A stretch of DNA of 13,805 nt, taken from IMG/VR virus record IMGVR_UViG_2703718840_000009, positions 1 to 13,805 of that record; one strand, written 5' to 3'. This DNA comes from a virus (Duplodnaviria; Heunggongvirae; Uroviricota; Caudoviricetes). The position numbers and the translations under genes are program-made. The notes beneath the pieces are model-generated. The model made no database searches. It was not told the origin of the DNA and saw only the letters and a program-made list of their open reading frames with translations. This document shows positions 1 to 13,805 of this stretch, one piece after another; within the stretch, counting starts at the first letter, position 1; each line of letters begins with the position of its first letter.

Positions 1-585
1 CTATTCGATAATGGGTCCTGTTGGCCATTCAATATCCGGTGCAGTTGATGTATCAACACGGTTCAGCAACACCCGATACTTCTTCCAGGCTTCCAGCAAC
101 GAGTTTTCTTCCTCCGTTGCGATCTCCAGATCCACAGCATCCTGAAGCGGCGCTATATGCTCACTGGCTACCTGCATCAGGCTGTTTTTTGTTTCTTCCG
201 CCTCCCGGATCCGGAACAGTTTTTCTGCTTCCGTATCCTTCACCCAGGCTGTGCCGTTCCACTTCTGATATTCCCCTCCCGGCGACAACCAGGTAACATT
301 TTCCGGTAACGGACCGAGTTCAGAAATAAATAACGCGTCGCCGGAAGCCACGTCATAAACCGTTTTACCCCGATGGTCTTCAACGAGATGCCACGATGCC
401 TCATCACTGTTGAAAACGGCCACAAAGCCAGCAGGAATATCTGGCGGTGCAATATAGGTACTGTTTGCTGGCAGACCTGTATGAGGCGGAATATATGCAT
501 CACCTTCACCAATAAATTCATTAGTTCCGGCCAGCAGATTATAAATTTTTATGGTCCGTGGTTGTTCACTCATTCTGAATGCCAT
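1..585 (-). CDS. tfa: Tail fibre assembly protein Tfa
   Basis: 194-aa ORF ([24 protein letters not shown]...) matches lambda Tfa from memory. Stop codon is at 1-3; start overlaps the stf stop (ATGA). Confidence 0.9.
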
Positions 586-1481
586 TATGCAAGCCTCACA
601 ATATAGTTAAATGCGATGTTTTTGACGGTGTTTTCCGCGTTACCAGCAGCGTTAACGGTGATGGTGTGTCCATGTGAACCAATCGCAACCGAGTGCGTAT
701 GCGCACCAATACCGACAGTATGTGCGTGTGCACCTGCGCTTGCAGCAGTACCCGATACAGAGTGCGTATGAGCGCCTGCAGAAGAAGTGTTAACACTGTA
801 TTTAGAATAATCAGGTGATCCACTTCCCGGAGCACCACTGGAACCACCTGAAACAAATGTCATCGAATGGGTATGTGCACCGGCTGAAGCAGCCGTACCG
901 CTAACACTATGGGTATGCGCACCAGTGTTATTCGTGGATTTAGTGCCGTAATCAAACGACGATGTGGTTTTCGTCCCCAAATCCGTACTGGATACGCTGG
1001 CGCTGTGGGTGTGTGATTTAATGCCGTCCTGTTCCTGAGACAATACGGCTCGATCACTGGCGGGCTTGCCCTTAATCGTCCAGCCACGCATATCAGGGAT
1101 CACGCCTGACGGATAAGCGGCTGCAAGTTTCGGGTAAGCAGATTTGTCAAAAGTCTGCCCCTGCATCAGGGCATAACCAGACGGAACGGTATCTGATGGC
1201 CACGGGATTGGTGCACCGACTGGATAAAACTCTGCAGGAGGATGAGCCGAGGTGTAAAGCTGCGCCCACGGCGACCAGTTTGCGTCGGTCGTATCCCGTC
1301 GTGAACGAATAAATGCCGGAGCATGAGCACCGCTTGTACCACTCCAGCCGATGAGTAACTCACCTTCGCCAACGGCTGTCATCCCTTTCAGGTGAATGAT
1401 ATTTCCATACGCTGTTGGATATCCGTTGTTATACACCTCGTATAACTCAAGACCTGTTGCCCCCTGCGTATTGTCTGTCAA
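585..1481 (-). pseudogene. stf: Side tail fibre protein Stf, C-terminal fragment (~298 codons) truncated at a deletion junction
   Basis: His-rich GAHTHS repeats typical of the lambda Stf C-terminus. The frame stays open upstream into terminase A sequence with no native start; the ORF track start is a TTG. Confidence 0.8.
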
Positions 1482-1657
1482 CGCGGTTGAAAGGGCAGTG
1501 TTTCCCAGCGCCCTTCCTGGTATGCGGATTCTTTCGGGAGATAGTAATTAGCATCCGCCCATTCAACGGCGGTCTGTGGCTCCGGCCTGAACAGTGAGCG
1601 AAGCCCGGCGCGGACAAAATGCCGCAGCCTGTTAACCTGACTGTTCGATATATTCAC
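1478..1657 (-). pseudogene. A: Terminase large subunit A, N-terminal ~57-codon remnant ending at the deletion junction
   Basis: Reverse complement reads [59 protein letters not shown], then departs from lambda A and hits TGA. Start overlaps the nu1 end as in lambda. Confidence 0.75.
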
Positions 1658-2189: not shown

Positions 2190-2400
2190 GGACAAAAACA
2201 GAGAAAGGAAACGACAGAGGCCAAAAAGCTCGCTTTCAGCACCTGTCGTTTCCTTTCTTTTCAGAGGGTATTTTAAATAAAAACATTAAGTTATGACGAA
2301 GAAGAACGGAAACGCCTTAAACCGGAAATTTTTCATAAATAGCGAAAACCCGCGAGGTCGCCGCCCCGTAACCTGTCGGATCACCGGAAAGGACCCGTAA
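2190..2400 (-). other. cos: Annealed cos site (cosB-cosN-cosQ); 12-nt cohesive-end sequence at about 2355-2366
   Basis: Plus strand 2341-2366 (agcgaaaacccgcgaggtcgccgccc) is the reverse complement of the lambda left end GGGCGGCGACCTCGCGGGTTTTCGCT. It is followed directly by cgtaacctgtcgg, the reverse complement of the lambda right end. Confidence 0.85.
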
Positions 2401-2565
2401 AGTGATAATGATTATCATCTACATATCACAACGTGCGTGGAGGCCATCAAACCACGTCAAATAATCAATTATGACGCAGGTATCGTATTAATTGATCTGC
2501 ATCAACTTAACGTAAAAACAACTTCAGACAATACAAATCAGCGACACTGAATACGGGGCAACCTC

Positions 2566-2760
2566 ATGTCAACGAAGAACAGAACCCGCAGAACAACAAC
2601 CCGCAACATCCGCTTTCCTAACCAAATGATTGAACAAATTAACATCGCTCTTGAGCAAAAAGGGTCCGGGAATTTCTCAGCCTGGGTCATTGAAGCCTGC
2701 CGTCGGAGACTAACGTCAGAAAAGAGAGCATATACATCAATTAAAAGTGATGAAGAATGA
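2566..2760 (+). CDS. Hypothetical small protein with a possible ribbon-helix-helix (Arc/CopG-like) fold
   Basis: 64-aa ORF starting in right-end lambda sequence (catgaggttgccccg). Basic N-terminus then a strand-helix-helix pattern (RNIRFPNQMIEQINIALEQKGSGNFSAWVIEACRRRL). No convincing RBS seen. Confidence 0.35.
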   Translation: MSTKNRTRRTTTRNIRFPNQMIEQINIALEQKGSGNFSAWVIEACRRRLTSEKRAYTSIKSDEE

Positions 2761-2924
2761 ACATCCCGCGTTCTTCCCTCCGAACAGGACGATATTGTAA
2801 ATTCACTTAATTACGAGGGCATTGCAGTAATTGAGTTGCAGTTTTACCACTTTCCTGACAGTGACAGACTGCGTGTTGGCTCTGTCACAGACTAAATAGT
2901 TTGAATGATTAGCAGTTATGGTGA

Positions 2925-3131
2925 TCAGTCAACCACCAGGGAATAATCCTTCATATTATTATCGTGCTTCACCAACGCTGCCTCAATTGCTCTGAATGCT
3001 TCCAGAGACACCTTATGTTCTATACATGCAATTACAACATCAGGGTAACTCATAGAAATGGTGCTATTAAGCATATTTTTTACACGAATCAGATCCACGG
3101 AGGGATCATCAGCAGATTGTTCTTTATTCAT
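2925..3131 (-). CDS. Hypothetical 68-aa protein of the lambda right arm
   Basis: ORF in a visibly AT-rich block at the position of a small ORF I recall near the lambda right end. Confidence 0.5.
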
Positions 3132-3293
3132 TTTGTCGCTCCATGCGCTTGCTCTTCATCTAGCGGTTAAAATATTACTTCAAATCTTTCTGTATGAAGA
3201 TTTGAGCACGTTGGCCTTACATACATCTGTCGGTTGTATTTCCCTCCAGAATGCCAGCAGGACCGCACTTTGTTAAGCAACCAATACTATTAA

Positions 3294-3827
3294 GTGAAAA
3301 CATTCCTAATATTTGACATAAATCATCAACAAAACACAAGGAGGTCAGACCAGATTGAAACGATAAAAACGATAATGCAAACTACGCGCCCTCGTATCAC
3401 ATGGAAGGTTTTACCAATGGCTCAGGTTGCCATTTTTAAAGAAATATTCGATCAAGTGCGAAAAGATTTAGACTGTGAATTGTTTTATTCTGAACTAAAA
3501 CGTCACAACGTCTCACATTATATTTACTATCTAGCCACAGATAATATTCACATCGTGTTAGAAAACGATAACACCGTGTTAATAAAAGGACTTAAAAAGG
3601 TTGTAAATGTTAAATTCTCAAGAAACACGCATCTTATAGAAACGTCCTATGATAGGTTGAAATCAAGAGAAATCACATTTCAGCAATACAGGGAAAATCT
3701 TGCTAAAGCAGGAGTTTTCCGATGGGTTACAAATATCCATGAACATAAAAGATATTACTATACCTTTGATAATTCATTACTATTTACTGAGAGCATTCAG
3801 AACACTACACAAATCTTTCCACGCTAA
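3294..3827 (+). CDS. Hypothetical 177-aa protein of the lambda right arm (true start may be an internal Met)
   Basis: Long ORF in the AT-rich block between cos and bor; an aggaggt RBS-like motif lies inside the 5' end, suggesting a later start. Confidence 0.5.
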
Positions 3828-4116
3828 ATCATAACGTCCGGTTTCTTCCGTGTCAGCACCGGGGCGTTGGCATAATGCAATACGTGTACGCGCTAAACCC
3901 TGTGTGCATCGTTTTAATTATTCCCGGACACTCCCGCAGAGAAGTTCCCCGTCAGGGCTGTGGACATAGTTAATCCGGGAATACAATGACGATTCATCGC
4001 ACCTGACATACATTAATAAATATTAACAATATGAAATTTCAACTCATTGTTTAGGGTTTGTTTAATTTTCTACACATACGATTCTGCGAACTTCAAAAAG
4101 CATCGGGAATAACACC

Positions 4117-4410
4117 ATGAAAAAAATGCTACTCGCTACTGCGCTGGCCCTGCTTATTACAGGATGTGCTCAACAGACGTTTACTGTTCAAAACAAACCG
4201 GCAGCAGTAGCACCAAAGGAAACCATCACCCATCATTTCTTCGTTTCTGGAATTGGGCAGAAGAAAACTGTCGATGCAGCCAAAATTTGTGGCGGCGCAG
4301 AAAATGTTGTTAAAACAGAAACCCAGCAAACATTCGTAAATGGATTGCTCGGTTTTATTACTTTAGGCATTTATACTCCGCTGGAAGCGCGTGTGTATTG
4401 CTCACAATAA
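4117..4410 (+). CDS. bor: Bor lipoprotein (serum-resistance, Iss-like)
   Basis: 97-aa ORF with signal peptide and lipobox (MKKMLLATALALLITGCAQQ), matching lambda Bor from memory. Opposite orientation to the lysis genes, as in lambda. Confidence 0.9.
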   Translation: MKKMLLATALALLITGCAQQTFTVQNKPAAVAPKETITHHFFVSGIGQKKTVDAAKICGGAENVVKTETQQTFVNGLLGFITLGIYTPLEARVYCSQ

Positions 4411-4441
4411 TTGCATGAGTTGCCCATCGATATGGGCAACT

Positions 4442-4903
4442 CTATCTGCACTGCTCATTAATATACTTCTGGGTTCCTTCCAGTTGTTTTTGCATAGTGA
4501 TCAGCCTCTCTCTGAGGGTGAAATAATCCCGTTCAGCGGTGTCTGCCAGTCGGGGGGAGGCTGCATTATCCACGCCGGAGGCGGTGGTGGCTTCACGCAC
4601 TGACTGACAGACTGCTTTGATGTGCAACCGACGACGACCAGCGGCAACATCATCACGCAGAGCATCATTTTCAGCTTTAGCATCAGCTAACTCCTTCGTG
4701 TATTTTGCATCGAGCGCAGCAACATCACGCTGACGCATCTGCATGTCAGTAATTGCCGCGTTCGCCAGCTTCAGTTCTCTGGCATTTTTGTCGCGCTGGG
4801 CTTTGTAGGTAATGGCGTTATCACGGTAATGATTAACAGCCCATGACAGGCAGACGATGATGCAGATAACCAGAGCGGAGATAATCGCGGTGACTCTGCT
4901 CAT
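4442..4903 (-). CDS. Rz: Spanin inner-membrane subunit Rz
   Basis: 153-aa ORF with N-terminal TM segment and coiled-coil body; matches lambda Rz from memory. Confidence 0.9.
4501..4683 (-). CDS. Rz1: Spanin outer-membrane lipoprotein Rz1, nested in the +1 frame of Rz
   Basis: 60-aa ORF inside Rz with lipobox (VVVGCTS) and a proline-rich stretch ([15 protein letters not shown]). Confidence 0.85.
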
Positions 4904-5376
4904 ACATCAATCTCTCTGACCGTTCCGCCCGCTTCTTTGAATTTTGCAATCAGGCTGTCAGCCTTATGCTCGAACTGACCATAACCAGCGCCCGGCAGTG
5001 AAGCCCAGATATTGCTGCAACGGTCGATTGCCTGACGGATATCACCACGATCAATCATAGGTAAAGCGCCACGCTCCTTAATCTGCTGCAATGCCACAGC
5101 GTCCTGACTTTTCGGAGAGAAGTCTTTCAGGCCAAGCTGCTTGCGGTAGGCATCCCACCAACGGGAAAGAAGCTGGTAGCGTCCGGCGCCTGTTGATTTG
5201 AGTTTTGGGTTTAGCGTGACAAGTTTGCGAGGGTGATCGGAGTAATCAGTGAATAGCTCTCCGCCTACAATGACGTCATAACCATGATTTCTGGTTTTCT
5301 GACGTCCGTTATCAGTTCCCTCCGACCACGCCAGCATATCGAGGAACGCCTTACGTTGATTATTGATTTCTACCAT
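4900..5376 (-). CDS. R: Endolysin R (lytic transglycosylase)
   Basis: 158-aa ORF ([35 protein letters not shown]...) matches lambda R from memory; overlaps the Rz start. Confidence 0.95.
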
Positions 5377-5683
5377 CTTCTACTCCGGCTTTTTTAGCAG
5401 CGAAGCGTTTGATAAGCGAACCAATCGAGTCAGTACCGATGTAGCCGATAAACACGCTCGTTATATAAGCGAGATTGCTACTTAGTCCGGCGAAGTCGAG
5501 AAGGTCACGAATGAACCAGGCGATAATGGCGCACATCGTTGCGTCGATTACTGTTTTTGTAAACGCACCGCCATTATATCTGCCGCGAAGGTACGCCATT
5601 GCAAACGCAAGGATTGCCCCGATGCCTTGTTCCTTTGCCGCGAGAATGGCGGCCAACAGGTCATGTTTTTCTGGCATCTTCAT
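5360..5683 (-). CDS. S: Holin/antiholin S (S107/S105 dual start)
   Basis: 107-aa ORF beginning [32 protein letters not shown] with the Met1-Lys2-Met3 dual-start motif and three TM segments. Confidence 0.95.
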
Positions 5684-6088
5684 GTCTTACCCCCAATAAG
5701 GGGATTTGCTCTATTTAATTAGGAATAAGGTCGATTACTGATAGAACAAATCCAGGCTACTGTGTTTAGTAATCAGATTTGTTCGTGACCGATATGCACG
5801 GGCAAAACGGCAGGAGGTTGTTAGCGCGACCTCCTGCCACCCGCTTTCACGAAGGTCATGTGTAAAAGGCCGCAGCGTAACTATTACTAATGAATTCAGG
5901 ACAGACAGTGGCTACGGCTCAGTTTGGGTTGTGCTGTTGCTGGGCGGCGATGACGCCTGTACGCATTTGGTGATCCGGTTCTGCTTCCGGTATTCGCTTA
6001 ATTCAGCACAACGGAAAGAGCACTGGCTAACCAGGCTCGCCGACTCTTCACGATTATCGACTCAATGCTCTTACCTGTTGTGCAGATA

Positions 6089-6145
6089 TAAAAAATCCCG
6101 AAACCGTTATGCAGGCTCTAACTATTACCTGCGAACTGTTTCGGG
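6089..6145 (-). terminator. tR' intrinsic terminator of the 6S transcript
   Basis: On the minus strand, cccgaaac ... gtttcggg stem followed by a U-run (reverse complement of plus-strand 6089-6145). Confidence 0.7.
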
Positions 6146-6282
6146 ATTGCATTTTGCAGACCTCTCTGCCTGCGATGGTTGGAGTTCCAGACGATACGTC
6201 GAAGTGACCAACTAGGCGGAATCGGTAGTAAGCGCCGCCTCTTTTCATCTCACTACCACAACGAGCGAATTAACCCATCGTT
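6089..6282 (-). ncRNA. Lambda 6S RNA (short pR' transcript terminated at tR')
   Basis: Interval between the inferred pR' start and tR'; the sequence matches the lambda pR'-tR' region from memory. The TSS position is approximate. Confidence 0.55.
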
Positions 6283-6320
6283 GAGTCAAATTTACCCAAT
6301 TTTATTCAATAAGTCAATAT
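6283..6320 (-). promoter_or_regulatory. Late promoter pR' with overlapping qut site
   Basis: Minus strand reads TTGACT (-35), 17-nt spacer, TAAATT (-10), as in lambda (ttgacttattgaataaaattgggtaaatttgactcaacgatgg). Confidence 0.65.
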
Positions 6321-6359
6321 CATGCCGTTAATATGTTACCATCCGTGGCAATCATGCTG

Positions 6360-6752
6360 CTAACGTGTGACCGCATTCAAAATGTTGTCTGCGATTGACT
6401 CTTCTTTGTGGCATTGCACCACCAGAGCGTCATACAGCGGCTTAACAGTGCGTGACCAGGTGGGTTGGGTAAGGTTTGGGATTAGCATCGTCACAGCGCG
6501 ATATGCTGCGCTTGCTGGCATCCTTGAATAGCCGACGCCTTTGCATCTTCCGCACTCTTTCTCGACAACTCTCCCCCACAGCTCTGTTTTGGCAATATCA
6601 ACCGCACGGCCTGTACCATGGCAATCTCTGCATCTTGCCCCCGGCGTCGCGGCACTACGGCAATAATCCGCATAAGCGAATGTTGCGAGCACTTGCAGTA
6701 CCTTTGCCTTAGTATTTCCTTCAAGCTTTGCCACACCACGGTATTTCCCCGA
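6360..6752 (-). pseudogene. Q: Antiterminator Q, C-terminal fragment only (~130 codons)
   Basis: C-terminus (SGKYRGVAKLEGNTKAKVLQ ... HKEESIADNILNAVTR) matches lambda Q. The ORF-track extension to 7019 is antisense to bet/exo, so the Q N-terminus is absent. Confidence 0.8.
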
Positions 6753-6948
6753 TAACGATGAAACCATGCAGGAGATTAACACTCTGCTGATCGCCCTGGA
6801 TAAAACATGGGATGACGACTTATTGCCGCTCTGTTCCCAGATATTTCGCCGCGACATTCGTGCATCGTCAGAACTGACACAGGCCGAAGCAGTGAAAGCT
6901 CTTGGATTCCTGAAACAAAAAGCCACTGAGCAGAAGGTGGCAGCATGA
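6748..6948 (+). pseudogene. bet: Bet single-strand annealing protein, C-terminal ~66-codon remnant
   Basis: Reads (PD)[64 protein letters not shown], the lambda Bet C-terminus; stop overlaps the exo start (ATGA). Confidence 0.8.
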
Positions 6949-7625
6949 CACCGGACATTATCCTGCAGCGTACCGGGATCGACGTGAGAGCTGTCGAACA
7001 GGGGGATGATGCATGGCACAAATTACGGCTCGGCGTCATCACCGCTTCAGAAGTTCACAACGTGATAGCAAAGCCCCGCTCAGGAAAGAAGTGGCCTGAC
7101 ATGAAAATGTCCTACTTCCACACCCTGCTTGCCGAGGTTTGCACCGGTGTGGCTCCGGAAGTTAACGCTAAAGCACTGGCCTGGGGAAAACAGTACGAGA
7201 ACGACGCCAGAACCCTGTTTGAGTTCACTTCCGGCGTGAATGTTATTGAATCCCCGATCATCTATCGCGACGAAAGTATGCGTACCGCCTGCTCTCCCGA
7301 TGGTTTATGCAGTGACGGCAATGGCCTTGAGCTGAAATGCCCGTTTACCTCCCGGGATTTCATGAAGTTCCGGCTCGGTGGTTTCGAGGCCATAAAATCG
7401 GCTTACATGGCCCAGGTGCAGTACAGCATGTGGGTGACACGAAAAGATGCCTGGTACTTTGCCAACTATGACCCACGTATGAAGCGTGAAGGACTGCATT
7501 ATGTCGTGGTTGAGCGGGATGAAAAGTACATGGCGAGTTTTGACGAGATGGTGCCGGAGTTCATCGAAAAAATGGACGAGGCACTGGCTGAAATTGGTTT
7601 TGTATTTGGGGAGCAATGGCGATGA
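6945..7625 (+). CDS. exo: Lambda exonuclease (Red alpha)
   Basis: 226-aa ORF ([40 protein letters not shown]...) matches lambda Exo from memory. Confidence 0.95.
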
Positions 7626-7804
7626 AGCATCCTCACGATAATATCCGGGTAGGTGCGATCACTTTCGTCTACTCCGTTACAAAGCGAGGCTGGGTATTTC
7701 CCGGCCTTTCTGTTATCAGAAATCCCCTGAAAGCACAGCGGCTGGCTGAGGAGATAAATAATAAACGGGGAGCTGTATGCACAAAGCATCTCCCGTTGAG
7801 TTAA
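7616..7804 (+). CDS. Small hypothetical protein (lambda orf60a-like); start may be the ATG at 7622
   Basis: Small ORF immediately after exo, overlapping its stop, as in the lambda pL operon. Confidence 0.6.
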
Positions 7805-7968
7805 GAACGAGTATCGAGATGGCACATAGCCTCGCTCAAATTGGAGTCAGGTTTGTGCCAATACCAGTAGAAACAGACGAAGAATTTCATACGTTAGCCG
7901 CATCCCTTTCACAAAAGCTGGAAATGATGGTGGCGAAAGCAGAAGCAGATGAGAGAGACCAGGTATGA
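7777..7968 (+). CDS. Small hypothetical protein (lambda orf63-like)
   Basis: 63-aa ORF overlapping the neighbouring ORFs, in the same order as lambda. Confidence 0.6.
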   Translation: MHKASPVELRTSIEMAHSLAQIGVRFVPIPVETDEEFHTLAASLSQKLEMMVAKAEADERDQV

Positions 7969-8044
7969 CAACCACTGAATGTATTTTTCTGGCAGCGGGC
8001 TTCATATTCTGTGTGCTTATGCTTGCCGACATGGGGCTTGTTCA

Positions 8045-8260
8045 ATGACACCTCAGCAAGAAAACGCCCTTCGCAGCATTGCCCGTCAGGCTAATTCTGA
8101 AATCAAAAAAGCCAGACAGCAGTTTCCGGATAAAAACGTCGATGACATTTGCCGTAGCGTACTGAAGAAGCACCGCGAAACGGTAACGCTGATGGGATTC
8201 ACACCGACTCATTTAAGCCTGGCAATCGGCATGTTAAACGGCGTCTTTAAGGAACGATGA
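8045..8260 (+). CDS. Small hypothetical protein (lambda orf61-region); ORF track extends it upstream to 7979
   Basis: Internal ATG at 8045 gives MTPQQENALRSIARQANSEIKKARQQFPDKNVDD...; no recognisable domain. Confidence 0.45.
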   Translation: MTPQQENALRSIARQANSEIKKARQQFPDKNVDDICRSVLKKHRETVTLMGFTPTHLSLAIGMLNGVFKER

Positions 8261-8358
8261 ACATGAAAAGCAAAATTATCAGGGAGCTACAGGCTCCTTT
8301 TTTATTGCTCGCATTTACCCCCAAGCGTATTAACCAACAATTCAGGGATTAATGGAAG

Positions 8359-8580
8359 ATGGCAGACATCATTGATTCAGCATCAGAAATTGAAGAATTA
8401 CAGCGCAACACAGCAATAAAAATGCGCCGCCTGAACCACCAGGCTGTATCTGCCACTCATTGTTGTGAGTGTGGCGATCCCATAGATGAGCTAAGACGCC
8501 TGGCCGTTCAGGGTTGTCGGACTTGTGCAAGTTGCCAGGAAGATCTGGAGCTTATCAGTAAACAGAGAGGTTCGAAGTGA
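8359..8580 (+). CDS. TraR/DksA-family C4 zinc-finger protein (lambda Orf73-like)
   Basis: 73-aa ORF with CxxC-(17)-CxxC (HCCECGDPIDELRRLAVQGCRTCASC), resembling F-plasmid TraR. Stop overlaps the next ORF start (GTGA). Confidence 0.8.
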   Translation: MADIIDSASEIEELQRNTAIKMRRLNHQAVSATHCCECGDPIDELRRLAVQGCRTCASCQEDLELISKQRGSK

Positions 8581-8990
8581 GCGTAATTCACTCTCAGGCA
8601 CTGCGTGAAGCGGCAGAGCAGGCAATGCCTGACAACTGGGGATTTGACGCGGACCTTTTCCATGAGCTGGTAACACCATCGATTGTGCTGACACTGCTGG
8701 ATGAACGGGAAAGAAACCAGCAATACATCAAACGCCGCGACCAGGAGAACGAGGATATTGCGCTAACGGTGGGGAAACTGCGTGTTGAGCTGGAGACAGC
8801 AAAAATCAAAACTCAACGAGCAGCGTGAGTAGAAGGTGTTATCTCGGATGGAAGTAAGCGTATTGCTGAACTGGAGGCCTGGGTTGAATACACAAGAGCT
8901 GCATACGTAAGAGCAAAAGACAAGGGAGATTTGATCAGAGTTATTACCCGCCAACCAACGGGATTTTACGCTTACGTACCATGTAATTAG
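8577..8990 (+). pseudogene. ea22: ea22-like ORF interrupted by an in-frame TGA at 8826-8828 (83 codons, stop, then 53 open codons)
   Basis: N-terminus MSVIHSQALREAAEQAMPDNWGFDADLFHELVTPSIVL resembles lambda Ea22 (from memory, uncertain). After the TGA the same frame reads VEGVISDGSKRIAELEAWVEYTRAAYVRAKDKGDLIRVITRQPTGFYAYVPCN to TAG at 8988-8990. Confidence 0.5.
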
Positions 8991-9126
8991 GAATCCTTGA
9001 AGTGGCAGCCTAACTGCGGATACACTGAAATGGCGATTTGGTAACATGTTTCGCACAAGGCTGTTACTACACTTAGAGATAATCAGCCATGATTAAACGC
9101 TTTGTAAAAAGTAAAAGGAAATTACA

Positions 9127-9741
9127 ATGAAAAAATCAATACTAATTTTAGGGCTTACGTTAATTGTCTCATCTCAAATACCATCGGCAATGGCAAAAAA
9201 TGAATCAAAACTATGGGTTGTTGTTGATCGAACGGAAAGACATACCTGCCCTTCAAGTAAATGTGGAGTGGCTGGGAAACTATTTTTCAGGGAAGGCGTA
9301 GATTTTCTAGAAAAAAAAGGTGAATGGGTTCGTATAACTGAGCCATATTCAGCCTCATGTGTTGGAGGGGAAAGCGAATATATTAAAGAAGGTAATAAAT
9401 CCTGCACAAGAAAAAATGGAATCGTTAATGGCAAGTTTTCAGAATGGGTTAAACTTAGTGATCTTAGCAGTGAAAGGCCATCAGATCCTGCTGAAAATGC
9501 GAGCGGAGATGATACTTTAATCAAAGGATCTGATGACTACCGTATATACAAAAAAGAGTTTTCTTCGGCAGCTAGGAAGTTAATAAATGAAGGGGTCTGC
9601 ACGGAAAGCGATTTTAAGGAAATCGGAGGGTGGATGGCATCAAGCAATAAGGGTGAAAACATCTATTTCACATATTGCGGAGGAATGACGTTGTCGAACA
9701 GAATATATCTAGACGTTAAAAGTGGAAAGACTTTTAGATAA
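9127..9741 (+). CDS. Hypothetical secreted protein with a possible bacterial SH3-like N-terminal domain (non-lambda)
   Basis: 204-aa ORF with RBS aagga ~8 nt upstream and a signal peptide (MKKSILILGLTLIVSSQIPSAMA). Visibly AT-rich, several Cys, followed by a terminator hairpin. Confidence 0.8.
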   Translation: MKKSILILGLTLIVSSQIPSAMAKNESKLWVVVDRTERHTCPSSKCGVAGKLFFREGVDFLEKKGEWVRITEPYSASCVGGESEYIKEGNKSCTRKNGIVNGKFSEWVKLSDLSSERPSDPAENASGDDTLIKGSDDYRIYKKEFSSAARKLINEGVCTESDFKEIGGWMASSNKGENIYFTYCGGMTLSNRIYLDVKSGKTFR

Positions 9742-9812
9742 TATGATATTACCAATGACAGCATTAATTTAATGCCTCCATAGAATTATCTCCAGGAAGT
9801 AAGTATAAGAAA

Positions 9813-9850
9813 AGCCCGCACAATGAGCTGCTGCGGGCTTTGTGTTATTC
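9813..9850 (+). terminator. Putative intrinsic terminator after the secreted-protein gene
   Basis: Stem agcccgca / tgcgggct with ~11-nt loop, followed by a T-rich tract (ttgtgttatt). Confidence 0.55.
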
Positions 9851-10034
9851 GCCATATTTTATGAAGCAAATACGACACTATAGATAATTAAGCGTTACTG
9901 GTTGTCGATTCCTCACTCATTCCTGCTGATGGCTGTCTTCTTGTATGTGCCATTGAAGGGTAATATCGCGTAAAAAGATACCGGAAGTATCCGCGCCGCC
10001 ATGATTGTCTTTCTCCTGATGCAGGAAAAGCAGA

Positions 10035-10373
10035 ATGACTAGATCAGCAGCAGAGCGCAAAGCCGATCAGAGAGCCAAGCAAGCATCATCCGGTATGCGT
10101 AAGCTGGAGCTTGTACTTGATGCTCAGGAAATTGAAATGCTGGAGCGTAACTGAGCCACGCGCCGCTTCAGGCGTGCGCCTTACGAGTTTGGTGAGTACA
10201 TAGCATTACTGAGCCGCCAGGATGATGCACGTGTGCGCTGGCGTATAAAATCGATTAGCAGAAAACGTTGCCGTAAGTGCGGCGAGAGAGTTCCTGTTAA
10301 TTCATGCCCGTGTAATGGTGACTCACAATACTGGGTGACCAAAGGCTGGCACGAAACAAAATTAATGATATAA
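10035..10373 (+). pseudogene. Zinc-ribbon small ORF (possible Ea8.5 counterpart) split by an in-frame TGA at 10152-10154
   Basis: ATG at 10035 with RBS aggaaaag gives 39 aa (MTRSAAERKADQRAKQASSGMRKLELVLDAQEIEMLERN). After the TGA the same frame stays open to TAA at 10371-10373 and contains CRKCGERVPVNSCPC; a GTG at 10233 could restart it. Confidence 0.4.
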
Positions 10374-10401
10374 ATCTCTGTGACATGTCACGGAGGCGGC
10401 A

Positions 10402-10830
10402 ATGAAATTAGACCAGCAATATCTAAAAGATCTACTTATCGCATTCGAAAAAACTTATGGCCCTGACACGATGCTTAGTGAACTAGAGGATAATGGCTTT
10501 AATAGATATGACCAAAATTTTATTTTCCATATGCGATTATTATGTGACTACGAATTAATAGTTAGGGTTGATGGAAAACCAGGGTTCGGTCATATAATGT
10601 CCAACGAGTTAGGGGAAGGTGTTGAATATAGTTGGATCGAAGTACCACTGAGGTTGACAGCAAGAGGGCATGATTTTATTGCTGACTTACGTCAAAAGGA
10701 GGTCTGGCAAGCTATAAAAACAAACTTTAAGGATGAGGGAATTAGTACTCTTATGAGTGTTTCAAAATCACTAGCAAAAGTCTTTGCAAGGAAAAAAATA
10801 AAAGATATTACAGGAATAGATATTGAATAA
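10402..10830 (+). CDS. Hypothetical 142-aa protein, no signal peptide (non-lambda)
   Basis: Strong RBS ggagg 5 nt upstream; visibly AT-rich; preceded by a 12-bp palindrome and followed by a terminator hairpin at about 10877-10900. Confidence 0.75.
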   Translation: MKLDQQYLKDLLIAFEKTYGPDTMLSELEDNGFNRYDQNFIFHMRLLCDYELIVRVDGKPGFGHIMSNELGEGVEYSWIEVPLRLTARGHDFIADLRQKEVWQAIKTNFKDEGISTLMSVSKSLAKVFARKKIKDITGIDIE

Positions 10831-10876
10831 TTCTTAGCATCAAGCAACTACTGCCTTTGGTGAAAATTATATCTGA

Positions 10877-10900
10877 ACTCGCTACGGCGAGTTTTGTTTT
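10877..10900 (+). terminator. Putative intrinsic terminator after the 142-aa gene
   Basis: 6-bp stem actcgc / gcgagt with loop tacg, followed by tttgtttt. Confidence 0.55.
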
Positions 10901-10913
10901 ACGGAGATGATAA

Positions 10914-11081
10914 ATGCACTTCAGAGTCACTGGTGAATGGAATGGAGAACCATTCAACAGAGTTATCTAAGCAGAGAACATCAATGACTGCTATGACAAC
11001 TGGATGATATGGGCGCAGATAGCACATGCAGACATAACCAATATTCGAATTGAAGAACTGAAAGAACACCAAGCCGCCTGA
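10914..11081 (+). pseudogene. Small ORF upstream of xis (lambda orf55-position) interrupted by an in-frame TAA at 10968-10970
   Basis: Reads MHFRVTGEWNGEPFNRVI, TAA, then AENINDCYDNWMIWAQIAHADITNIRIEELKEHQAA to TGA at 11079-11081. The 168-nt span fits the 55-codon lambda ORF I recall at this position. Confidence 0.4.
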
Positions 11082-11120
11082 TGGCGGTTTTTTCTTGCGT
11101 GTAATTGCGGAGACTTTGCG

Positions 11121-11339
11121 ATGTACTTGACACTTCAGGAGTGGAACGCTCGCCAGCGACGCCCAAGAAGCCTTGAAACAGTTCGTCGATGGGTGCGCGA
11201 ATGCAGGATATTCCCTCCTCCGGTTAAGGATGGAAGAGAGTATCTGTTCCACGAATCAGCGGTAAAGGTTGACTTAAATCGACCAGTAACAGGTAGCCTT
11301 TTGAAGAGGATCAGAAATGGGAAGAAGGCGAAGTCATGA
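11121..11339 (+). CDS. xis: Excisionase Xis
   Basis: 72-aa ORF (MYLTLQEWNARQRRPRSLETVRRWVRECRIFPPPVKDGREYLFHESAVKVDLN...) matches lambda Xis; 3' end overlaps int. Confidence 0.95.
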   Translation: MYLTLQEWNARQRRPRSLETVRRWVRECRIFPPPVKDGREYLFHESAVKVDLNRPVTGSLLKRIRNGKKAKS

Positions 11340-12387
11340 GCGCCGGGATTTACCCCCTAACCTTTATATAAGAAACAATGGATATTACTGCTACAGGGAC
11401 CCAAGGACGGGTAAAGAGTTTGGATTAGGCAGAGACAGGCGAATCGCAATCACTGAAGCTATACAGGCCAACATTGAGTTATTTTCAGGACACAAACACA
11501 AGCCTCTGACAGCGAGAATCAACAGTGATAATTCCGTTACGTTACATTCATGGCTTGATCGCTACGAAAAAATCCTGGCCAGCAGAGGAATCAAGCAGAA
11601 GACACTCATAAATTACATGAGCAAAATTAAAGCAATAAGGAGGGGTCTGCCTGATGCTCCACTTGAAGACATCACCACAAAAGAAATTGCGGCAATGCTC
11701 AATGGATACATAGACGAGGGCAAGGCGGCGTCAGCCAAGTTAATCAGATCAACACTGAGCGATGCATTCCGAGAGGCAATAGCTGAAGGCCATATAACAA
11801 CAAACCCTGTCGCTGCCACTCGCGCAGCAAAATCAGAGGTAAGGAGATCAAGACTTACGGCTGACGAATACCTGAAAATTTATCAAGCAGCAGAATCATC
11901 ACCATGTTGGCTCAGACTTGCAATGGAACTGGCTGTTGTTACCGGGCAACGAGTTGGTGATTTATGCGAAATGAAGTGGTCTGATATCGTAGATGGATAT
12001 CTTTATGTCGAGCAAAGCAAAACAGGCGTAAAAATTGCCATCCCAACAGCATTGCATGTTGATGCTCTCGGAATATCAATGAAGGAAACACTTGATAAAT
12101 GCAAAGAGATTCTTGGCGGAGAAACCATAATTGCATCTACTCGTCGCGAACCGCTTTCATCCGGCACAGTATCAAGGTATTTTATGCGCGCACGAAAAGC
12201 ATCAGGTCTTTCCTTCGAAGGGGATCCGCCTACCTTTCACGAGTTGCGCAGTTTGTCTGCAAGACTCTATGAGAAGCAGATAAGCGATAAGTTTGCTCAA
12301 CATCTTCTCGGGCATAAGTCGGACACCATGGCATCACAGTATCGTGATGACAGAGGCAGGGAGTGGGACAAAATTGAAATCAAATAA
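11317..12387 (+). CDS. int: Integrase Int (tyrosine recombinase)
   Basis: 356-aa ORF (MGRRRSHERRDLPPNLYIRNNGYYCYRDPRTGKEFGLGRDRRIAITEAIQ...) matches lambda Int over its full length. Confidence 0.97.
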   Translation: MGRRRSHERRDLPPNLYIRNNGYYCYRDPRTGKEFGLGRDRRIAITEAIQANIELFSGHKHKPLTARINSDNSVTLHSWLDRYEKILASRGIKQKTLINYMSKIKAIRRGLPDAPLEDITTKEIAAMLNGYIDEGKAASAKLIRSTLSDAFREAIAEGHITTNPVAATRAAKSEVRRSRLTADEYLKIYQAAESSPCWLRLAMELAVVTGQRVGDLCEMKWSDIVDGYLYVEQSKTGVKIAIPTALHVDALGISMKETLDKCKEILGGETIIASTRREPLSSGTVSRYFMRARKASGLSFEGDPPTFHELRSLSARLYEKQISDKFAQHLLGHKSDTMASQYRDDRGREWDKIEIK

Positions 12388-12483
12388 TGATTTTATTTTG
12401 ACTGATAGTGACCTGTTCGTTGCAACAAATTGATAAGCAATGCTTTTTTATAATGCCAACTTAGTATAAAAAAGCAGGCTTCA
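12388..12483. other. attL: attL junction: phage P' arm with Int arm-type sites, 15-bp core (about 12461-12475), then bacterial arm
   Basis: Reverse complement reads tgaagcct-GCTTTTTTATACTAA-gttggcattataaaaaagcattgcttatcaatttgttgcaacgaacaggtcactatcagtcaaaataaaatca: bacterial-side sequence, lambda core, then lambda P' arm. Confidence 0.88.
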
Positions 12484-12521: not shown

Positions 12522-13805
12522 GTGAACACATTTTCAGTTTCCCGTCTGGCGCTGGCATTGGCTTTTGGCGTGACGCTGACCGCCTGTAGCTCAACCCCGC
12601 CCGATCAACGTCCTTCTGATCAAACCGCGCCTGGTACCTCTTCTCGCCCGATTCTGTCGGCAAAAGAAGCGCAGAATTTCGATGCTCAACACTATTTTGC
12701 ATCCCTGACACCAGGTGCTGCAGCGTGGAATCCTTCCCCGATTACCCTGCCTGCGCAACCTGACTTTGTTGTCGGCCCGGCGGGCACTCAAGGTGTAACG
12801 CATACCACGATTCAGGCGGCGGTAGATGCGGCAATTATCAAGCGTACCAACAAGCGCCAGTATATTGCCGTGATGCCTGGTGAGTATCAGGGAACGGTAT
12901 ATGTCCCTGCCGCTCCGGGTGGAATTACTCTGTACGGTACAGGTGAAAAACCGATTGATGTGAAGATTGGGCTTTCCCTTGATGGTGGCATGAGCCCTGC
13001 CGACTGGCGTCACGACGTCAACCCGCGCGGCAAATATATGCCAGGTAAACCAGCGTGGTATATGTACGATAGCTGCCAGAGCAAACGCAGCGACAGTATC
13101 GGTGTTCTCTGCTCTGCGGTCTTCTGGTCACAAAACAATGGCCTGCAACTGCAAAATCTGACCATCGAAAACACGCTGGGCGATAGCGTAGATGCAGGTA
13201 ACCATCCGGCGGTGGCACTGCGTACTGATGGTGACCAGGTACAGATTAACAACGTTAACATTCTCGGTCGTCAGAACACCTTCTTTGTCACCAACAGCGG
13301 TGTGCAGAACCGTCTGGAAACGAATCGTCAGCCGCGTACGCTGGTGACCAACAGCTACATTGAAGGGGATGTGGATATCGTTTCTGGTCGCGGCGCAGTG
13401 GTGTTCGATAACACCGAATTCCGCGTGGTGAACTCACGTACTCAGCAAGAAGCGTATGTGTTTGCACCGGCTACGCTGTCCAACATTTACTACGGTTTCC
13501 TCGCCGTAAACAGCCGTTTCAATGCTTTCGGTGATGGTGTGGCGCAACTGGGCCGCTCGCTGGATGTTGATGCCAATACCAACGGTCAGGTGGTGATCCG
13601 TGATAGCGCCATCAACGAAGGTTTTAACACGGCTAAACCGTGGGCCGATGCGGTGATCTCTAATCGTCCGTTTGCGGGTAATACCGGCAGCGTAGATGAT
13701 AACGACGAAATACAGCGCAATCTGAATGACACTAACTACAACCGCATGTGGGAATACAATAACCGCGGCGTGGGTAGTAAAGTGGTTGCAGAGGCGAAGA
13801 AGTAA
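12522..13805 (+). CDS. ybhC: Host outer-membrane lipoprotein YbhC (pectinesterase-family / acyl-CoA thioesterase)
   Basis: 427-aa ORF with GTG start, signal peptide and lipobox (LTAC); recognised as E. coli YbhC, the gene beside the lambda attachment site. Visibly higher GC than the prophage accessory regions. Confidence 0.88.
   Translation: MNTFSVSRLALALAFGVTLTACSSTPPDQRPSDQTAPGTSSRPILSAKEAQNFDAQHYFASLTPGAAAWNPSPITLPAQPDFVVGPAGTQGVTHTTIQAAVDAAIIKRTNKRQYIAVMPGEYQGTVYVPAAPGGITLYGTGEKPIDVKIGLSLDGGMSPADWRHDVNPRGKYMPGKPAWYMYDSCQSKRSDSIGVLCSAVFWSQNNGLQLQNLTIENTLGDSVDAGNHPAVALRTDGDQVQINNVNILGRQNTFFVTNSGVQNRLETNRQPRTLVTNSYIEGDVDIVSGRGAVVFDNTEFRVVNSRTQQEAYVFAPATLSNIYYGFLAVNSRFNAFGDGVAQLGRSLDVDANTNGQVVIRDSAINEGFNTAKPWADAVISNRPFAGNTGSVDDNDEIQRNLNDTNYNRMWEYNNRGVGSKVVAEAKK

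Follow-up and report, generated by a model that had tools for sequence, protein, structure and literature searches.

Organization of the prophage remnant

The DNA analysed here (the window, a whole stretch of 13,805 nucleotides) is a heavily deleted, defective lambda-like prophage located at att-lambda in the E. coli draft assembly GCA_001576305.1. It was compared over its full length with the lambda reference genome (NC_001416) by BLAST and by ungapped comparison, and all lambda coordinates below refer to that record. The window is 100% identical to LOOF01000014.1, a 258-kb contig of the same assembly, in which ybhC borders the remnant at one end and a GGDEF gene, ybhB and bioA lie at the opposite end. 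The att core lies beside int, ybhC follows, and the immunity, replication and morphogenesis modules are absent, as in a defective lambdoid prophage at att-lambda. The features are listed in Table 1.

Most of the retained phage DNA is very close to lambda. Window 2367-6754 corresponds to lambda 48502-44115 with three mismatches in 4388 bp (ungapped comparison), and int and xis match lambda at 98.7%. With near-perfect identity to a known phage extending over 4.4 kb, a chance resemblance need not be considered. The stretch 8876-10865 has no counterpart in lambda according to BLAST, and the only accessory non-lambda ORFs recognised by the Pfam and PADLOC scans encode a DUF2513 protein and a TraR/DksA zinc finger protein. 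Two large segments are missing. One is lambda 32221-44114, which comprises the N-terminal part of bet, gam, kil, cIII, pL, N, the immunity region, O/P, nin and Q codons 1-77. The second deletion, from lambda 881 to about 21244, extends from A through stf; it leaves an A'::'stf fusion at window 1487/1488 and has removed all the head and tail genes.

Other origins of this remnant, namely a defective lambda already known from the laboratory or from E. coli B, or a construct of the DE3 type, were also considered and rejected, since BL21(DE3)-type genomes match the window in pieces only; a literature search on such an origin returned nothing relevant. A separate literature search found no papers on GCA_001576305.1 or on strain PSJ-12 (NZ_AP027622.1). 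PSJ-12 has a prophage remnant at the same insertion site, and it matches the source contig at 100% in all the DNA that the two share, with about 3.5 kb of this DNA being chromosomal flank.

Table 1. Features of the window, with the corresponding positions in lambda (NC_001416)
Feature	Window position	Strand	Lambda position	Remarks
tfa and 3' part of stf	1-1487			
cos, Nu1 and first 56 codons of A	1488-2366	minus	880..1	Nu1 at 1632-2177
Rz, i-spanin, 153 aa, with embedded Rz1, o-spanin (4501-4683)	4903-4442	minus		DNA and protein identical to lambda
R, endolysin, 158 aa	5376-4900	minus		Protein identical to lambda; one synonymous T>C at 5251
S, holin/antiholin, S107 (S105 start at 5677)	5683-5360	minus		DNA and protein identical to lambda
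Second G+C-rich hairpin, GGCAGGAGGU...ACCUCCUGCC, then GUUUUG	5838-5804	minus		Between tR' and S
tR' intrinsic terminator	hairpin 6147-6096, U6 6095-6090	minus	44722-44779	Identical to lambda
6S RNA template, 194 nt	6282-6089	minus	44587-44780	100% identical to lambda
Sigma-dependent pause element (AACGAT), -10-like	6282-6277	minus	44587-44592	Identical to lambda
Predicted +1 of pR'	6282	minus	44587	
pR' -10 (TAAATT)	6294-6289	minus	44575-44580	Identical to lambda
17-bp spacer with the Q-binding element (QBE) of qut	6311-6295	minus	44558-44574	Identical to lambda
pR' -35 (TTGACT)	6317-6312	minus	44552-44557	Identical to lambda; found by promoter scan
Truncated Q, codons 78-207 and stop	6752-6360	minus		130 aa, 130/130 identical to PDB chains
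188-aa ORF, GTG start, antisense through 'bet into the Q frame	6926-6360	minus		'Hypothetical protein' KXQ16729.1 / KXR96876.1
Deletion junction bet::Q	6753/6754			'TA' 2-bp microhomology; last 65 codons of bet joined to Q codon 78
C-terminal 65 codons of bet, without promoter or start	6753-6948	plus		exo next, 6945-7625
Last 65 codons of bet, exo and small ORFs	6753-8875		32220..30094	96.6% identity
xis, int and att core	10866-12475		29333..27724	
att core GCTTTTTTATACTAA (attL)	12461-12475	minus		Beside int (11317-12387)
Host ybhC	12522-13805			Next to the att core

The pR'-6S-tR' unit and the lysis genes

The late-control unit of lambda is present in the window, where 6317-6089 on the minus strand is identical, base for base, to lambda 44552-44780. 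The earlier note on this DNA had placed pR', the qut region and tR' upstream of S-R-Rz within 6085-6320, and this span brackets exactly the pR'-to-tR' unit. The promoter was also recovered independently by a generic sigma-70 consensus scan. Following established lambda knowledge, we take the QBE to lie between the -35 and -10 boxes of pR', and the AACGAT motif is presumably the sigma-dependent pause element (SDPE). Both the location of the QBE at lambda pR' and the role of the SDPE are also described in PMC9388147. The RNA encoded by the roughly 194-nt template has the lambda 6S sequence and a predicted fold of -66.6 kcal/mol (z = -3.4 versus shuffles), while the tR' hairpin reaches -26.9 kcal/mol (z = -6.27), with 0 of 200 shuffles equally stable.

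The late region of lambda (Q-pR'-qut-6S-tR'-S-R-Rz-Rz1, 43886-46427) and the window are identical over 44532-46427, except for one synonymous change in R; this change, at window 5251, is the only mismatch from the -35 box of pR' to the end of Rz. Between the stop codon of Q and the start of S there is also a single difference from lambda, a C>T at window 6338 (lambda 44531), 56 nucleotides upstream of the pR' start (-56), where an UP element could act on the promoter. The proteins encoded by S, R, Rz and Rz1 do not differ from their lambda counterparts, in agreement with the earlier claim of intact lysis genes, and bor is likewise identical to lambda in DNA and protein.

The second G+C-rich hairpin, located between tR' and S, has a predicted stability of -28.9 kcal/mol (z = -3.2). 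It is a possible back-up terminator, and may act as a tandem late terminator. The sigma-70 scan did not detect any other minus-strand promoter-like site between tR' and S. Regarding the components of a lambda-type Q-dependent late cassette, pR' with its QBE, the pause element (by its sequence), tR' and the downstream lysis genes were all found, and the only missing one is an intact Q upstream of pR'.

Truncation of Q

The earlier note described Q as having lost its N-terminal third. The loss is indeed N-terminal, and its extent is slightly larger, since residues 1-77 of 207 (37%) are missing. The retained part corresponds to residues 78-207 of PDB 7UBM and 41-170 of PDB 4MO1, and it still belongs to the Pfam family PF03589 (Antiterm), with 125.7 bits against a cut-off of 26.7. 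On the other hand, the N-terminal nozzle segment that a functional antiterminator places in the RNA-exit channel is not there, because it lies in the deleted residues. Other Q genes called as truncated (110-aa product) belong to lambda vector-like contigs with a split Q and are unrelated to this one.

The structure of Q explains what this loss would mean. The torus, made up of residues 1-44, narrows the RNA-exit channel and is essential for antitermination, residues 45-60 contact the flap-tip helix, and the globular body is composed of residues 61-113 and 153-207 (PMC9388147). The fragment in the window has lost the torus, the flap-tip-helix contacts and helix 1 (61-77) of the four-helix body. 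In lambda, a Q protein without residues 1-38 loses antitermination and keeps QBE binding (PMC9388147). Since the fragment starts at residue 78 and the loss of 1-38 alone abolishes the function, no antitermination would be expected from it even if it were made.

Two other readings of this junction were considered. One of them is that the bet::Q fusion is an artefact of assembly or editing, and the fact that the junction has no match among the 5426 complete RefSeq E. coli genomes, the GTDB species representatives or the JGI metagenome contigs scanned could point in this direction. However, the junction-spanning 188-aa ORF is annotated, as exactly the same fused protein, in two separate E. coli draft assemblies (KXQ16729.1 and KXR96876.1), the window matches a 258-kb contig at 100%, overlaps of 2 bp are not joined by short-read assemblers, and the flanks are 100% identical to those of PSJ-12. 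An artefact is hardly credible with these data, and the bet::Q structure is real. The other reading accepts the junction and proposes that the truncated Q is expressed, for example within the 188-aa fusion or by initiation at ATG 6767, and that it either antiterminates weakly or occupies the QBE in a dominant-negative manner; in the latter case it would blunt the late genes of incoming lambda-type phages and give protection against superinfection. The bet::Q frame is open from 7019/6926 down to 6360 and is annotated in GenBank, the fragment retains both QBE-contacting elements, the helix-turn-helix (H4-H5) and the zinc ribbon, and binding to the QBE and to RNA polymerase, though not antitermination, persists in the Q protein without residues 1-38 (PMC9388147). 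Nevertheless, no convincing Shine-Dalgarno sequence precedes any of the in-frame starts (GTG 7019, GTG 6926, ATG 6857, GTG 6782 and ATG 6767), and the sole minus-strand promoter candidate upstream of the fragment, at 7525-7498, is a 9/12 match that is expected at chance frequency. Moreover, stable folding is doubtful with body helix 1 (residues 61-77) gone, and the loss of the torus excludes antitermination itself. Judging from these signals, expression of the Q fragment is unlikely, and an expressed fragment with any of the proposed activities is extremely improbable.

Expected behaviour of the late cassette

The arrangement at this locus is very probably a stranded late-control unit of lambda inside a defective prophage, which would produce 6S RNA constitutively, keep S-R-Rz silent and respond to Q supplied in trans. 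In lambda, polymerase that starts at PR' in the absence of Q pauses at the sigma-dependent pause element and terminates, so that the downstream genes are not transcribed, and it reads through when Q is present (PMC9388147). PR' is constitutive in lambda and the lysogens produce the short 6S RNA, to which no function has been assigned (PMC7547250). As the unit in the window is identical in sequence to that of lambda, the same behaviour is strongly expected, that is, constitutive 6S RNA and silent S-R-Rz. The earlier proposal that pR' transcripts should end at tR' as 6S RNA, leaving the lysis genes silent, thus agrees with what these two studies describe for lambda.

The events at this locus could be pictured as follows. 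An illegitimate deletion at the 2-bp TA microhomology removed the DNA from the middle of bet to Q codon 77, and a second deletion removed A through stf. The sigma-70 RNA polymerase of the host would initiate constitutively at pR' (window 6282), pause at +16/17 and, as functional Q is absent, stop at tR' (window ~6089), releasing a 194-nt 6S RNA. S, R, Rz and Rz1 would be silent as a consequence of this termination. The resident Q fragment (78-207), which has no evident promoter or ribosome-binding site and lacks the torus, would not be expected to provide antitermination. A lambda-family Q from an infecting phage or from an induced co-resident prophage could load at qut and carry transcription past tR', across the lysis genes and further downstream. 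Transcription, termination and trans-activation at this cassette are all proposed from its identity to lambda.

Q is a diffusible protein whose sole requirement in cis is the qut site. In classical genetics, heteroimmune superinfection is said to trans-activate the late genes of a prophage, and Herskowitz and Signer (1970) reportedly mapped the cis site between Q and S. A laboratory precedent is the pRE 'transactivation' vector, in which plasmid genes driven by pR' are turned on when an induced lambda prophage provides Q (PMC12894885). This vector lends support, by analogy, to the idea in the earlier note that a compatible Q would make the lysis cassette trans-activatable. The logic of the pR' cassette is already known, being textbook lambda biology, and Q transactivation is a routine laboratory tool. 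Plasmids of the pRE and pS105 types follow the same logic, with pR' and a terminator keeping the lysis genes off as long as no lambda Q is provided in trans (PMC12894885). The cassette of the window differs from them in being natural, single-copy and chromosomal, and in having arisen by spontaneous deletion and not by cloning. Compared with the lambda late region itself, Q lacks codons 1-77 and the early region that delivers Q (pR, N and nin) is deleted; with the immunity, replication, head and tail genes also missing, self-activation would never be possible. In this last respect alone would the cassette behave differently from a repressed lambda prophage.

A lambda-type Q segment (at least 95% identity) was found in 1255 of the 5426 complete E. 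coli genomes (~23%), so compatible Q donors are common. Once modified by Q, the polymerase would be expected to continue through cos, Nu1, A'::'stf and tfa, and then, in antisense, into the GGDEF gene, ybhB and bioA. Nevertheless, trans-activation of the cassette is probably of negligible practical effect, because a donor of lambda-type Q brings along many replicating copies of its own S-R-Rz, which are expressed with the same timing.

Related remnants and probable neutral decay

Other defective lambdoid prophages show both similarities and differences with the window. DLP12 of K-12 (quuD-essD-rrrD-rzpD) and the att-lambda remnant of NCTC9087 also have an intact holin-endolysin-spanin set, bor, Nu1 and an A'::'stf deletion. 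The NCTC9087 remnant shares the insertion site and the flanks with the window, but it differs in its late module (quuD, a porin gene with the annotation ompC, and essD-rrrD-rzpD) and has deletions of its own. Both DLP12 and NCTC9087 keep an intact Q of another type (quuD), whereas in the window the module is of the lambda type and its Q is broken.

The deletion in PSJ-12 is complementary to that of the window. This strain lacks lambda 44117-46024 (the C-terminus of Q, pR', 6S, tR', S, R and the start of Rz) and retains Q codons 1-77, NinG-I, an N'::NinF' fusion, cIII, kil, gam and the full bet. The entire pR'-6S-tR' unit is thus deleted in this strain, the closest relative of the one studied here. 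The missing Q-pR'-S-R segment was not among the perfect matches elsewhere in the PSJ-12 genome. These differing att-lambda remnants fit an ongoing and idiosyncratic process of prophage decay and module exchange.

The arrangement described here is most likely a neutral and very recent stage of prophage decay and not a selected device. The bet::Q junction is confined to two assemblies, with 0 occurrences in the 5426 complete genomes, and conservation is uninformative about selection, since the retained DNA is near-identical to lambda because the remnant is recent.

Two forms of selection were weighed against this neutral reading. The pR'-6S-tR' unit could persist because its 6S RNA has been domesticated as a regulatory small RNA that benefits the host, by analogy with StxS of the Shiga-toxin phages. 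StxS is the same kind of transcript, starting constitutively at PR' and ending at tR' in lysogeny; this by-product binds Hfq and activates rpoS, and its authors speculated on a function for lambda 6S (PMC7547250). The fold of 6S, which is more stable than its shuffles (z = -3.4), would also agree with such a role. StxS, however, has Hfq binding, RNase E processing and the targets rpoS and stx1B, while lambda 6S is likened to it by position only and has no assigned function (PMC7547250). Rfam, searched at gathering thresholds over the whole window, showed no family over the 6S/pR' region (its sole match was IS009 within tfa), the identity to lambda reflects recency and not selection, and nothing of the unit is left in the sister strain PSJ-12. 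Hence, a domesticated 6S RNA is very unlikely. The host could instead make use of the orphan lysis cassette, as an abortive-infection trip-wire that responds to the Q of an invader or, through low-level read-through, for autolysis and the release of eDNA or vesicles. This proposal draws on the lysis genes of DLP12 in K-12, which reportedly have roles in biofilms, and here S, R, Rz and Rz1 are all intact and the intact qut should make them responsive to Q in principle. Nonetheless, one chromosomal copy would add little to the many copies of S-R-Rz of the invader and would fire no earlier than these, tR' and the second hairpin separate the promoter from S, and the arrangement is recent and strain-specific, with the cassette deleted in the sister strain. 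A host function of this kind is just as improbable as the one proposed for 6S, and neutral decay is still the preferred interpretation.

The common breakpoint in Q

The comparison with PSJ-12 revealed that Q is broken at the same place, within 2 bp, in both remnants. The junction sequences (the slash marks the junction) are CATCGTTA/TCGGGG in the window and AAGGTAT/GGGCTG in PSJ-12, each of them unique among complete genomes. PSJ-12 has an extra deletion of 677 bp within stf, with the junction GAGTTA/TCGGGT, which recreates the 9-mer GTTATCGGG of the bet::Q junction of the window, and the right-hand partner of this stf deletion shares with the Q site the 8-mer GTATCGGG. In addition, GTTAAC is present at 2 of the 8 partner sites of the four deletions (binomial p ~2e-4, calculated post hoc).

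The truncation of Q could be the outcome of a sequence-directed break at GGTA^TCGGG and not of a random deletion. This is suggested by PSJ-12 being broken at the same 2-bp position with the opposite side lost, and the recurrence of the 8-mer, of the 9-mer and of GTTAAC at other deletions of this prophage lineage leans in that direction too. Overall, such a directed break is considered unlikely. Possible causes of the shared position are an insertion in the Q of a common ancestor that has since been lost, a site-preferring break followed by one-sided resection and microhomology joining, the breakage of both sister chromatids with cross-joining, or coincidence. With respect to the junction motifs, an HpaI-like cut, the scar of a TA-targeting IS and a small hairpin at the breakpoint were considered as further candidates. 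A common mosaic or IS boundary was discarded, since 1231 of the 1255 genomes with this Q segment span the breakpoint fully. Recombination by lambda Int at secondary sites is also unlikely, since the overlap regions of the partners differ.

If a sequence-directed break were true, an unrecognised site-preferring nuclease, a transposon-excision scar or one episode that broke both sister chromatids would be shaping prophage decay.

Biological significance

The locus illustrates cleanly, and in a natural setting, a textbook circuit inside a remnant that lacks its own Q, and as such it is of little importance. The mutational mechanism is the more interesting question, with near-identical strains that carry complementary deletions and a common breakpoint in Q. 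The strain of GCA_001576305.1 could serve as a natural single-copy reporter of the activity of lambda Q. More generally, cryptic prophages can contain lysis genes that are fully functional and Q-responsive, which infection by a lambda-type phage or the induction of a co-resident prophage could switch on or rescue by recombination.

Complementary deletions in Q

A deletion complementary to that of the window is carried by the att-lambda remnant of the near-clonal E. coli strain PSJ-12, with its junction at L006 6857/6858 versus window 6753/6754. In the PSJ-12 remnant the early-left genes are retained together with Q codons 1-77, whereas the C-terminal part of Q is missing along with pR', S, R and the beginning of Rz. 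The Q breakpoints of the two prophages agree within 2 bp, and each junction was unique among the 5426 complete genomes searched.

At window 1487/1488, codon 56 of the terminase gene A is joined to the 3' portion of stf by a second large deletion, after which cos and an intact Nu1 remain but all head and tail genes are gone. A similar A'::'stf fusion, with end points that differ from those of the window, is present in related remnants (E. coli NCTC9087, at the same insertion site).

The deletion junctions of the window/PSJ-12 lineage also have sequence signatures in common. The 9-mer GTTATCGGG is present at two independent deletion junctions, the 8-mer GTATCGGG is present at two right-hand deletion partners, and three left-hand partners end in GTTA. 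Moreover, GTTAAC contains two deletion partner sites (post-hoc p about 2e-4).

PSJ-12 additionally carries an IS5-family element between the ylcI-like and ybcW-like ORFs, flanked by a duplicated target of 4 bp that reads TTAG in L006, and this insertion is missing from the strain of the window.

Late region

From the Q stop to the S start, the sole difference from lambda is a C>T change at window 6338 (-56 of pR'). Elsewhere, the 4.4-kb block departs from lambda at just two positions, window 5251 (in R, synonymous) and 3276 (intergenic). The strong hairpin downstream of tR' has the same sequence as in lambda and may function as a back-up late terminator. The 188-aa ORF that crosses the junction corresponds to GenBank hypothetical proteins KXQ16729.1 and KXR96876.1; its annotation as a gene is probably an artefact that the deletion produced.

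Features of the prophage remnants (L006, PSJ-12 remnant locus; L008, source contig locus of the window)
Feature	Position	Strand	Context
188-aa ORF	window 6360-6926	-	antisense through bet remnant, then Q frame
Hairpin (-28.9 kcal/mol), then GUUUUG	window 5804-5838	-	between tR' and S
TraR/DksA zinc-finger ORF	window 8359-8580		just upstream of accessory block
204-aa ORF	window 9127-9741		accessory block
DUF2513 protein	window 10402-10830		accessory block
MASE4-GGDEF diguanylate cyclase gene	L008 17000-18340		just past window position 1
IS5-family (ISKpn26) insertion	L006 3726-4921		PSJ-12; site = window 2909-2912
Junction-signature sites	window 748-758, 1432-1437, 6748-6756; L006 2250-2258, 8640-8645		

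Accessory genes and neighbours

Between exo and xis, a non-lambda accessory block (window 8876-10865) stands in place of ea22/ea8.5, and its 204-aa ORF had no match in Pfam or PADLOC. At the other end of the window, Rfam IS009, a candidate sRNA family, matched within the tail-fibre assembly gene tfa (219.5 bits, window 44-242, minus strand). Directly after tfa and ahead of ybhB/bioA, within the remnant or at its edge, lies the MASE4-GGDEF diguanylate cyclase gene, which may be prophage-borne cargo.
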